Origin: Escherichia coli
Lineage (GTDB): Bacteria > Pseudomonadota > Gammaproteobacteria > Enterobacterales > Enterobacteriaceae
Assembly (NCBI RefSeq): GCF_003334785.1
Contig: NZ_QOWV01000019.1
Reading direction: 5' to 3' (one strand)
DNA length: 64,000 nucleotides
The first letter of the stretch is position 1. Each line of letters opens with the position of its first letter. Positions 58,056 to 60,734 of this stretch are shown one piece after another. The notes beneath the pieces were generated by a model. It worked only from the letters and a program-made list of their open reading frames with translations, was not told the origin of the DNA and made no database searches. The translations under genes were made by a program, and so were the position numbers.

Positions 58056-58075
58056 TTAGCCTACACCTGTAAGAA
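58056..58075. promoter_or_regulatory. EvgA-box-like inverted repeat upstream of ydeP
   Basis: TTAGCCTACACCTGTAAGAA resembles the TTCYTACA...TGTARGAA EvgA box; a near-identical copy lies upstream of safA. Confidence 0.5.
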
Positions 58076-58318
58076 AATCCGCGCACAATTGAAGCCAGAG
58101 TCTTATTTTTTATATTGAAAAATATGTTAATTTAAACACTATGAGAGATGATGCTTAACTTATCGTATTTAATCTATTGTTTAACGATAATAGATTAAAA
58201 ATAGAAAGAGAGTAGTCCCCTACTCTTATATATCCATGTTGGCGATAATCCCTTTGTATGTACTGTGCATCATCGCTATTACAAATCCTAATAATTCATT
58301 TCCACACAGGATAAGTAG

Positions 58319-60598
58319 ATGAAGAAAAAAATTGAATCCTACCAGGGTGCTGCAGGTGGTTGGGGTGCTGTTAAATCCGTAGCGAATGCAGTACGTAAGC
58401 AGATGGATATACGCCAGGATGTTATTGCCATGTTTGACATGAATAAGCCAGATGGCTTTGACTGTCCGGGTTGTGCATGGCCAGATCCTAAGCACAGTGC
58501 GTCATTCGACATTTGTGAAAACGGCGCAAAAGCAATCGCCTGGGAAGTCACGGATAAGCAGGTAAACGCCTCTTTCTTTGCTGAGAATACGGTTCAATCA
58601 TTACTTACCTGGGGAGACCACGAGCTTGAGGCTGCGGGGCGACTCACTCAGCCTTTGAAATATGATGCCGTCAGCGACTGTTACAAGCCATTAAGCTGGC
58701 AACAAGCTTTCGACGAAATTGGCGCACGCCTTCAAAGCTATAGTGATCCCAATCAGGTTGAATTCTATACTTCGGGCCGCACTTCCAATGAAGCTGCCTT
58801 TCTTTATCAGCTTTTTGCCCGTGAATACGGGAGCAATAACTTTCCCGACTGCTCCAACATGTGCCATGAACCGACAAGCGTGGGTTTGGCAGCGAGTATC
58901 GGTGTAGGTAAAGGGACCGTGTTGCTGGAAGACTTTGAGAAGTGCGATTTAGTCATTTGCATTGGGCATAACCCTGGTACAAACCACCCTCGCATGCTGA
59001 CTTCGTTGCGCGCTTTAGTGAAACGGGGAGCGAAAATGATCGCCATCAATCCTCTACAGGAACGTGGCCTGGAGCGATTTACCGCACCGCAAAACCCGTT
59101 TGAAATGCTGACGAACTCTGAGACTCAGTTGGCCAGTGCCTACTATAACGTGCGCATTGGTGGCGATATGGCGTTGCTCAAGGGGATGATGCGCCTGTTA
59201 ATTGAGCGCGATGATGCTGCAAGCGCCGCAGGTCGGCCTTCATTGCTTGATGACGAGTTTATTCAAACGCATACCGTCGGCTTTGACGAGCTACGCCGTG
59301 ACGTTCTCAATTCCGAGTGGAAAGATATCGAACGTATTTCTGGACTAAGTCAGACACAAATCGCCGAACTGGCTGACGCATATGCCGCTGCCGAACGCAC
59401 CATTATCTGTTACGGAATGGGGATCACTCAGCACGAACATGGTACCCAGAACGTACAGCAACTGGTCAATCTGCTGTTGATGAAAGGTAACATTGGCAAG
59501 CCTGGTGCGGGTATCTGCCCACTACGTGGACACTCTAATGTACAGGGCGACCGAACCGTCGGTATCACCGAGAAACCGTCTGCAGAGTTTCTGGCTCGTC
59601 TGGGTGAGCGCTATGGCTTCACCCCACCTCATGCACCTGGACATGCTGCAATTGCCAGCATGCAAGCAATATGTACGGGGCAGGCTCGAGCATTGATCTG
59701 CATGGGGGGCAATTTTGCGCTGGCAATGCCAGATCGGGAAGCGAGCGCTGTACCGTTAACGCAATTAGATTTGGCGGTACACGTAGCCACTAAGCTTAAC
59801 CGCTCTCATCTGTTGACCGCACGGCATAGCTATATTCTGCCGGTCCTGGGACGTAGCGAGATTGACATGCAAAAAAACGGTGCGCAGGCGGTAACCGTTG
59901 AGGATTCAATGTCGATGATTCATGCCTCGCGTGGCGTGTTAAAACCCGCCGGTGTAATGCTGAAATCAGAGTGTGCAGTGGTCGCGGGAATCGCGCAGGC
60001 AGCACTACCCCAGAGCGTGGTAGCCTGGGAGTATCTGGTGGAAGATTATGATCGCATTCGCAATGACATTGAAGCTGTGCTGCCAGAGTTCGCCGACTAT
60101 AACCAGCGCATCCGTCATCCCGGTGGTTTTCACCTGATAAATGCAGCTGCTGAAAGGCGCTGGATGACGCCGTCAGGTAAGGCTAATTTCATTACCAGCA
60201 AAGGGCTGTTAGAAGATCCCTCTTCAGCGTTTAACAGTAAGCTGGTCATGGCGACAGTACGCAGCCACGATCAGTACAACACGACGATTTATGGTATGGA
60301 TGATCGCTATCGAGGGGTATTCGGTCAACGAGATGTGGTCTTTATGAGTGCTAAACAAGCTAAAATTTGCCGTGTAAAAAACGGCGAAAGAGTTAATCTT
60401 ATTGCGCTTACGCCAGACGGTAAGCGCAGCTCACGCCGCATGGATAGATTAAAAGTGGTCATTTACCCTATGGCTGACCGCTCACTGGTGACCTATTTTC
60501 CAGAATCGAATCACATGCTAACACTTGATAACCACGATCCATTAAGTGGCATTCCTGGCTATAAAAGTATTCCGGTTGAATTAGAACCATCAAATTAA
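58319..60598 (+). CDS. ydeP: Molybdopterin oxidoreductase (formate-dehydrogenase-like) acid-resistance protein YdeP, 759 aa
   Basis: ORF track; N-terminal Cys cluster CPGCAWPDP. Confidence 0.85.
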
Positions 60599-60713
60599 TG
60601 CCTCTTCTCATTTCTTCTGCTGTCATCCGCACAGCAGAAGAATTCCTCATTGACTATTATTTCGCAATTTGCTCACATGGATTAAATTAAACTACATACT
60701 ATAAGATATAAAC

Positions 60714-60734
60714 TTCTGCCTACAGCTGTAAGAA
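60714..60734. promoter_or_regulatory. EvgA-box-like inverted repeat upstream of safA-ydeO
   Basis: TTCTGCCTACAGCTGTAAGAA; matches the box upstream of ydeP. Confidence 0.5.

Follow-up and report, generated by a model that had tools for sequence, protein, structure and literature searches.

Near-identical EvgA boxes in the colinear ydeP and safA-ydeO promoters of Escherichia coli

Two EvgA boxes in the ydeP-safA-ydeO locus

Two near-identical 18-bp sites found in a 64,000-nt stretch of Escherichia coli DNA (hereafter the window), at positions 58058-58075 and 60717-60734, are very probably the EvgA operators of the ydeP and safA-ydeO promoters, a reading to which we assign a probability of about 0.93. 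The evidence for it includes the near-identity of the two sites to each other, their fit to the motif found before other EvgA-activated genes, and published work on EvgA binding and activation at both promoters. Moreover, the likeness of the two promoters extends well beyond the boxes, into the core promoter and the first transcribed bases.

The first site, AGCCTACACCTGTAAGAA (58058-58075, plus strand), ends 243 nt before the ATG of ydeP (58319), and the second one, TGCCTACAGCTGTAAGAA (60717-60734, plus strand), ends 111 nt before the ATG of safA (60846). These distances agree with the ~240 and ~110 nt given in the original prediction, which had been made from the letters of the window, and its two strings, TTAGCCTACACCTGTAAGAA and TTCTGCCTACAGCTGTAAGAA, were located at 58056-58075 and 60714-60734, both on the plus strand. 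The gene names proposed there (ydeP, safA and ydeO) were also right, as positions 57900-61200 of the window show 100% identity with E. coli K-12 MG1655, whose RefSeq annotation lists the matching open reading frames as ydeQ (fimbrial), ydeP, safA and ydeO. Given this complete identity to K-12, the boxes before ydeP and safA are the published sites themselves.

The description of the two sites as near-identical inverted repeats stood in its first part, with 17 of 18 positions shared, and had to be weakened in the second one, the inverted-repeat symmetry being only imperfect. When one arm is compared with the reverse complement of the other, 5 of 8 bases agree in the ydeP site and 6 of 8 in the safA site, and a generic scan for inverted repeats listed neither of the two boxes. 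In turn, the common 18-mer, GCCTACANCTGTAAGAAA, occurs at these two places only within the 64 kb even when up to three mismatches are allowed, for 0.10 occurrences expected, and none of 100 shuffles contained two or more occurrences. What is statistically notable is how closely the sites match each other (17/18) and the EvgA consensus, rather than their internal symmetry. The features of the locus are collected in Table 1.

Table 1. Features of the ydeP-safA-ydeO locus, in positions of the window
Feature	Position	Strand	Basis or remarks
EvgA box of the ydeP promoter, AGCCTACA-CC-TGTAAGAA	58058..58075	+	Sequence match, consensus, weight matrix
Spacer from box to -10 of the ydeP promoter (putative element)	58076..58124	+	Gapless alignment with the safA promoter, offset 2659
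Probable extended -10 of the ydeP promoter, TGT-TAATTT	58125..58133	+	Aligns with TGT-TATATT of safA
ydeP 5' leader, 178 nt	58141..58318	+	Start taken from the '-178 to +10' probe of PMC11210196
ydeP coding sequence, 759 aa	58319..60598	+	Putative oxidoreductase of acid resistance (annotation)
Perfect 12-bp stem with 7-nt loop, 14 nt past the ydeP stop	60612..60642	+	-17.5 kcal/mol, z = -4.2
EvgA box of the safA-ydeO promoter, TGCCTACA-GC-TGTAAGAA	60717..60734	+	Sequence match, consensus, weight matrix
Remaining part of the cassette at the safA promoter, colinear with that of ydeP	60735..60825	+	Alignment
Extended -10 of the safA promoter, TGT-TATATT	60784-60792	+	Alignment with the ydeP promoter
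safA coding sequence, 65 aa	60846..61043	+	Connector between EvgS/EvgA and PhoQ/PhoP (PMC9496106)
ydeO coding sequence, 253 aa	61118..61879	+	AraC-type regulator of acid stress

Some other elements of the locus deserve a brief description. The leader of ydeP is predicted to be structured (fold z = -3.16), with hairpins around 58168-58199 and 58208-58227. The stem-loop that follows the ydeP stop codon is terminator-like, without a T-tract; its stem is unchanged in the nine strains aligned (see below), and its loop differs in L006. As for ydeO, this gene is co-transcribed with safA (bioRxiv 10.64898/2026.05.06.723403).

Fit of both sites to the EvgA motif

Work by Masuda and Church (2003) and by Itou et al. 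(2009) reportedly gave the consensus of the EvgA operator, an inverted repeat of 18 bp, as TTCYTACA-NN-TGTARGAA, and the same two studies are said to place such a box at ydeP, b1500 (safA)-ydeO, yfdX, frc, yegR and emrK/evgA. The list of genes in the EvgA regulon is supported by PMC8147483. The consensus string and the limits of the EvgA footprint are given here after secondary citations, and EvgA binding and dependence come from the literature. Measured against this consensus, the ydeP site has two mismatches and the safA site one, with both left half-sites departing from it (AGCC in ydeP and TGCC in safA, versus TTCY), and no other place in the 64 kb matches with two or fewer mismatches (0.04 expected). 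A further candidate with three mismatches, at 61659-61676 inside ydeO, was discarded as being at chance level (0.72 expected), its score of 11 bits comparing with 18-21 bits for the ydeP and safA sites.

The motif was tested independently of the window in the MG1655 regions around other reported EvgA-activated genes. A site without any mismatch, TTCTTACAACTGTAAGAA, which is a perfect palindrome, precedes frc, whereas two sites 38 bp apart, with one and three mismatches, are found at yfdX; the divergent emrK-evgA region has one site with two mismatches, and yegR one site with a single mismatch. All of them lie in upstream intergenic DNA, 97-251 nt before the start codon. The region upstream of gadE in MG1655 showed no match to the consensus with three or fewer mismatches, though gadE is a reported EvgA target, and the sole match at that locus, inside mdtE, is at chance level.

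A weight matrix was then built from the five sites of frc, yfdX, emrK-evgA and yegR only, leaving out those of ydeP and safA. Among the ~64,000 positions of the window, this matrix ranked the safA site first (21.0 bits) and the ydeP site second (18.3 bits), followed at a distance by the next position (11.0 bits). The same matrix gave no second EvgA site in the ydeP or safA promoters, where the next best position reaches at most 1.5 bits. Consensus fit and matrix ranks, along with the papers on EvgA binding and activation, bear out the original proposal that both units belong to the EvgAS regulon, a membership already known from the literature, where EvgA binds and activates the two promoters.

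Core promoters and transcription start

An identical geometry relates the box to the -10 element in both promoters, the probable extended -10 lying 49 nt downstream of each box. In a study on CsrA (PMC11210196), the leader RNA of ydeP began at -178 and ended at +10, counted from the ATG, which sets the 5' end at 58141, just 7 nt after the -10 hexamer common to both promoters. We consider this position as the probable start of ydeP transcription, bearing in mind that it comes from the design of a probe whose mapping basis is unstated in the paper. With a start at 58141, the ydeP box would cover about -83 to -66, with its centre at -74.5. For safA, colinearity and homology with the ydeP promoter would put the start at about 60799-60800. 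A different core promoter suggested by a generic scan, TTGAAG-16-TATATT at 58089-58116, was not adopted; it is absent from the safA promoter.

Likeness of the two promoters beyond the box

Alignment of the two upstream regions, which the original prediction had named as the way to check it, revealed that the case had been understated, as the likeness covers the whole promoter. The segment at 58059-58166 is 64% identical (69/108) to the safA promoter without a single gap, the offset staying at 2659 nt throughout, in a stretch running from the box through the common extended -10 up to about +25. Local alignment of the full regions gave z = 17.8 against dinucleotide shuffles, and the part downstream of the box, aligned alone, still gave z = 8.5, a score reached by none of 1000 shuffles. 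Read in the 5' to 3' direction, the blocks common to both promoters in the ydeP spacer (58076-58124) are AAnTCCGCnCA, which adjoins the box, TGAAGC, and AGTCnTATTT, which occupies the -35 position; then come the extended -10 and, within the first ~25 transcribed bases, the block TGA...GAT..TTAAC.

Such extended likeness is a matter of this pair of promoters. Pairwise comparison of EvgA promoters downstream of the box gave z = 9.2 for ydeP and safA and values below 3 for the other independent pairs, with a 12-nt match between ydeP and yegR, ATTTAAACACTA, being marginal (z = 2.4). The idea of an extended architecture common to all EvgA promoters was rejected accordingly, and, since the likeness downstream of the box is unique to ydeP and safA, it is not a general requirement of promoters of this kind. 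In the two promoters compared, the extended likeness seems best explained by the duplication of one promoter cassette within the locus. No description of this 108-nt colinearity was found in the literature searched.

A duplication raises in turn the question of whether the boxes could be nothing else than the best-preserved relic of a copied local promoter segment, with no regulatory role of their own. The ~108 nt of colinear and gapless likeness, limited to a neighbouring pair on the same strand, would be what such a history leaves behind. We regard this explanation as very improbable, however, given that the motif also precedes unrelated EvgA-regulated genes sharing nothing else with the ydeP and safA promoters, that strains differ less in the box than in any other part of the two promoters, and that EvgA binding and dependence have been published. 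A duplicated cassette and functional EvgA boxes are in any case compatible, and in our opinion both are true.

Conservation and polymorphism among strains

Cassettes of 115 nt, each present once per genome, were found in more than 98% of the complete E. coli genomes, namely in 5324 of 5426 for ydeP and in 5372 of 5426 for safA. A more detailed comparison was made with an alignment of nine sequences, namely K-12, seven other, diverse E. coli strains, and one locus from a divergent Escherichia, whose YdeP is 95% identical. In all nine (9/9), neither promoter shows any change in the right half-site, TGTAAGAA. Between K-12 and L006, the ydeP promoter is 85-89% identical from the box to +25 and 65% identical upstream of the box, with equivalent values of 77-89% and 56% for the safA promoter. 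In the part downstream of the box, positions with the same base in the two paralogous promoters were invariant among orthologues more frequently (89/106) than those differing between them (46/76; Fisher p = 5e-4). Given the small sample of related sequences, this excess is only a hint that some of the common blocks outside the box may be under constraint.

Variation within the boxes falls on a few positions. Among the nine strains, the ydeP box varies at 58059 (G/T) and 58067 (C/T), and the safA box at 60717 (T/C) and 60726 (C/T), the bases just upstream of the latter box being variable too. The second base of the spacer is thus C or T in both boxes, at the homologous positions 58067 and 60726. 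Three alleles of the left half of the ydeP box were counted: AGCCTACA-CC, the one of K-12, in 1758 genomes, ATCCTACA-CC in 1774 and ATCCTACA-CT in 1384. A G at 58059 specific to K-12 was rejected in view of the 1758 genomes carrying this allele. Neither the polymorphism in the left half-site of ydeP nor that in the two spacers was found described in the literature searched.

In individual strains the ydeP promoter is disrupted by IS insertions, one of which, an ISApl1 element in strain CFS3292, lies between the box and the -10 of the core promoter.

Control by EvgA and by other regulators

According to the literature, EvgS senses mild acidity and phosphorylates EvgA, phosphorylated EvgA binds and activates the ydeP and safA-ydeO promoters, and then YdeO activates gadE and SafA activates PhoQ (PMC11210196, PMC9496106, PMC7174508, PMC5706723, bioRxiv 10.64898/2026.05.06.723403). 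Direct binding of EvgA to the safA-ydeO promoter region has been reported (PMC9496106), with EvgA binding being also reported via PMC8147483, and regulation of safA-ydeO by phosphorylated EvgA is described as well (PMC5706723, bioRxiv 10.64898/2026.05.06.723403). The ydeP promoter is in turn a direct target of EvgA in an EvgS-dependent manner (PMC7174508, PMC4283999), and an EvgA binding site is present in all genes known to be directly regulated by EvgA (PMC4283999). Further layers of control involve PhoP, which lowers safA expression, and YdeO, with a negative feedback on safA and an indirect one on ydeP (both PMC11210196, bioRxiv 10.64898/2026.05.06.723403).

Alternatively, the two sites could in principle be primarily operators of another LuxR/NarL-type regulator of the acid network, such as RcsB or GadE, instead of EvgA. 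The RcsB box is of the type TAAGA-N4-TCYTA, and the right half-site with its flank, TAAGAAAnTCCGC, loosely resembles it. In this line, RcsB is needed along with EvgA for the acid induction of the ydeP promoter (PMC7174508). As an RcsB box, nevertheless, TAAGAAAnTCCGC was rejected because its spacing is one base short (TAAGA-N3-TCC), and the distal half does not match. Moreover, taken as a whole, the 18-bp site fits the motif that the EvgA targets have in common, and EvgA is the direct binder named in the literature (PMC9496106, PMC8147483), so that a primary role of another regulator appears highly unlikely. At the conserved flank, RcsB may instead be a co-factor that works beside EvgA and does not replace it.

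Lastly, a chance likeness between intergenic regions, for which only their general AT-richness would speak, is refuted by the shuffling controls, the two sites observed facing expectations of 0.10 and 0.04, the local alignment reaching z = 17.8, and the sites being kept in more than 5300 genomes.

Operation by EvgA thus remains the preferred reading of both boxes, and a sequence of events can be proposed. An EvgA dimer would occupy the 18-bp imperfect inverted repeat and, from ~74 bp upstream of the start, would recruit or activate RNA polymerase at a promoter presumably built of a poor -35 and an extended -10. In this way ydeP and safA-ydeO would be switched on in parallel, YdeO activating gadE and the genes for glutamate-dependent acid resistance, and SafA activating PhoQ. 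The conserved blocks flanking the boxes may serve a second factor.

Comparison with known systems

The boxes described here coincide in sequence, genes and organism with the EvgA box of the EvgS/EvgA regulon of E. coli, from which nothing differs in kind. Within the regulon, the frc, yfdX, yegR and emrK/evgA promoters carry the same 18-bp motif as ydeP and safA, but the sequence downstream of their boxes is unlike that of the latter pair (pairwise z < 3). The arrangement of sites differs too, from the perfect palindrome of frc and the two yfdX sites 38 bp apart to the single site of both ydeP and safA.

The closest characterised homologue of EvgAS is the BvgAS system of Bordetella. This homology is noted in PMC8174306. 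The BvgA promoters of Bordetella are alike in depending on a NarL/FixJ regulator and an unorthodox kinase, and in combining inverted-repeat sites of the heptad type with a weak core promoter. They differ in the sequence recognised and in having typically several cooperative sites that reach the -35, whereas only one site per promoter is recognisable in ydeP and safA.

Relatives and origin of the locus

When relatives of YdeP were sought in one genome of each species, the closest ones outside E. coli-type DNA were found in Edwardsiella (85% amino-acid identity), followed by those of Raoultella and Tatumella (56-57%). No EvgA box was found in the regions upstream of the Edwardsiella ydeP genes, which are unrelated to the E. 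coli upstream region. K-12 has evgAS, and EvgAS is described as essentially confined to E. coli and Shigella, with a Klebsiella homologue, KvgS/KvgA, also noted (PMC8174306). According to PMC5706723, no other species has been found to have evgAS or safA-ydeO. A boxless ydeP in Edwardsiella, for which the absence of EvgAS is taken from the literature statement, is consistent with such a confinement of the system to E. coli and Shigella (PMC8174306, PMC5706723).

The genes downstream of the two boxes differ in composition, with a GC content of about 50-54% in ydeP and about 35-39% in safA-ydeO. Genes of different origin would then have come under EvgA control in the E. coli lineage through copies of a single promoter cassette. 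A more elaborate version of this history, which we offer as tentative and rather doubtful in its entirety, is that an EvgA-responsive cassette of ~108 bp was duplicated in the E. coli lineage, wiring in a horizontally acquired ydeP and the low-GC safA-ydeO, and that its blocks outside the box bind a common second factor. If this were true, the blocks at about -64 to -46 and at +3 to +25 would be second-factor sites in both promoters, with the RcsB co-activator, or a repression linked to YdeO or PhoP, as the candidates. Second-factor sites in the conserved blocks outside the box were not found described in the literature searched.

Biological significance

Both the EvgAS-YdeO-GadE cascade of acid resistance and the connection from EvgAS to PhoQP have their entry point at the EvgA boxes of ydeP and safA-ydeO. 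Since these boxes were already established in E. coli K-12, finding them again adds nothing new by itself. The new observations are minor and of modest reach, and comprise the paralogy of the two promoters, the polymorphism in the left half-site and the spacers, the IS insertions at the ydeP promoter, and the boxless ydeP of Edwardsiella. Altogether, these minor additions may be of interest for the evolution of promoters and for natural variation in the Evg network.

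Natural Variation of the ydeP EvgA Box and Promoter Region

The EvgA box of ydeP is not uniform in E. coli, since it varies between genomes at window positions 58059 and 58067. Among 5426 complete E. coli genomes, the K-12-type box AGCCTACA-CC occurs in 1758, ATCCTACA-CC in 1774 and ATCCTACA-CT in 1384. The T allele of the ydeP box lies nearer to the EvgA consensus than the K-12 type does. Moreover, the same C/T difference at the second spacer base is seen in the ydeP (58067) and safA (60726) boxes alike, at homologous positions.

In three individual strains, CFS3292, EC-129 and GCEC19, the promoter region of ydeP is interrupted by an IS element (see the table). 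In CFS3292, insertion of ISApl1 uncouples the EvgA box from the -10 element of ydeP.

Features in and around ydeP and in related loci
Feature	Locus or strain	Position	Description
Hairpin 1 of ydeP leader	window	58168-58178 / 58189-58199	perfect 11-bp arms
Hairpin 2 of ydeP leader	window	~58208-58227	predicted
Stem-loop 3′ of ydeP	window	60612-60642	perfect 12-bp stem, 7-nt loop; 14 nt past stop codon
ISApl1	L062, E. coli CFS3292	window ~58114/58115	between EvgA box and -10
IS903B	L063, EC-129	window 58284-58292	ydeP 5′ leader, ~30 nt before ATG; 9-bp duplication
IS1A	L064, GCEC19		annotated directly ahead of ydeP, whose N-terminus is marked as missing
frc promoter	L001	15256-15767	
yfdX promoter	L001	16404-16698	
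Edwardsiella ydeP	L007, E. anguillarum		
Edwardsiella ydeP	L008, E. piscicida		
Edwardsiella ydeP	L009, E. hoshinae		

Predicted RNA Structures Flanking the ydeP Coding Sequence

The 178-nt ydeP leader (58141-58318) is predicted to be structured, with a minimum free energy of -40.5 kcal/mol (z = -3.16) for a fold in which, besides the two local hairpins, a long-range helix pairs positions ~+7 to +14 with bases ~50 nt before the ATG. Alignment of strains revealed a 5-nt insertion in some of them, just 5′ of the first hairpin. This leader was not bound by CsrA (PMC11210196).

At the other end of the gene, the stem-loop that follows the stop codon (-17.5 kcal/mol, z = -4.2) lacks a T-tract, and its stem is identical in all nine strains aligned. 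The loop reads CATCCGC in the window, whereas L006, a divergent Escherichia locus, has ACGGATG; the two are nearly reverse complements, as if the L006 loop had been inverted relative to that of the window.

Similarities among Other EvgA-Activated Promoters

The yegR promoter (L004, ~4330-4345) and the region of the ydeP transcript start (window 58130-58149) have in common ATTTAAACACTA followed by GAGAG, at distances from the respective EvgA boxes that differ by ~5 nt; the score of this promoter pair is marginal (z = 2.4). The decamer CTCTCTGATT is located 20-22 nt downstream of both the frc EvgA site and the proximal yfdX EvgA site. This is a hint of a possible relationship between the two neighbouring promoters as well, although their pairwise z is only 2.0.

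Relatives of YdeP and Origin of the Two Units

Outside E. coli, the nearest YdeP relatives are those of Edwardsiella, with 85% amino-acid identity, followed by Raoultella and Tatumella with 56-57%. The DNA upstream of ydeP in the three Edwardsiella loci is unrelated to that of E. coli and lacks an EvgA box. This comparison suggests horizontal transfer of ydeP between the E. coli and Edwardsiella lineages.

A contig from a metagenome-assembled genome labelled 'Candidatus Nanosynbacter' (JARKOR010000108.1; loci L005 and L043) also has both EvgA boxes, and its YdeP matches the E. coli K-12 protein at 100% identity. This contig is almost certainly contaminating E. coli DNA in the bin.

The GC content falls sharply from ~50-54% in ydeP (window 58400-60200) to ~35-39% in safA-ydeO and the next intergenic region (60800-62600), and this difference fits a separate origin for each of ydeP and safA-ydeO, probably by horizontal transfer.
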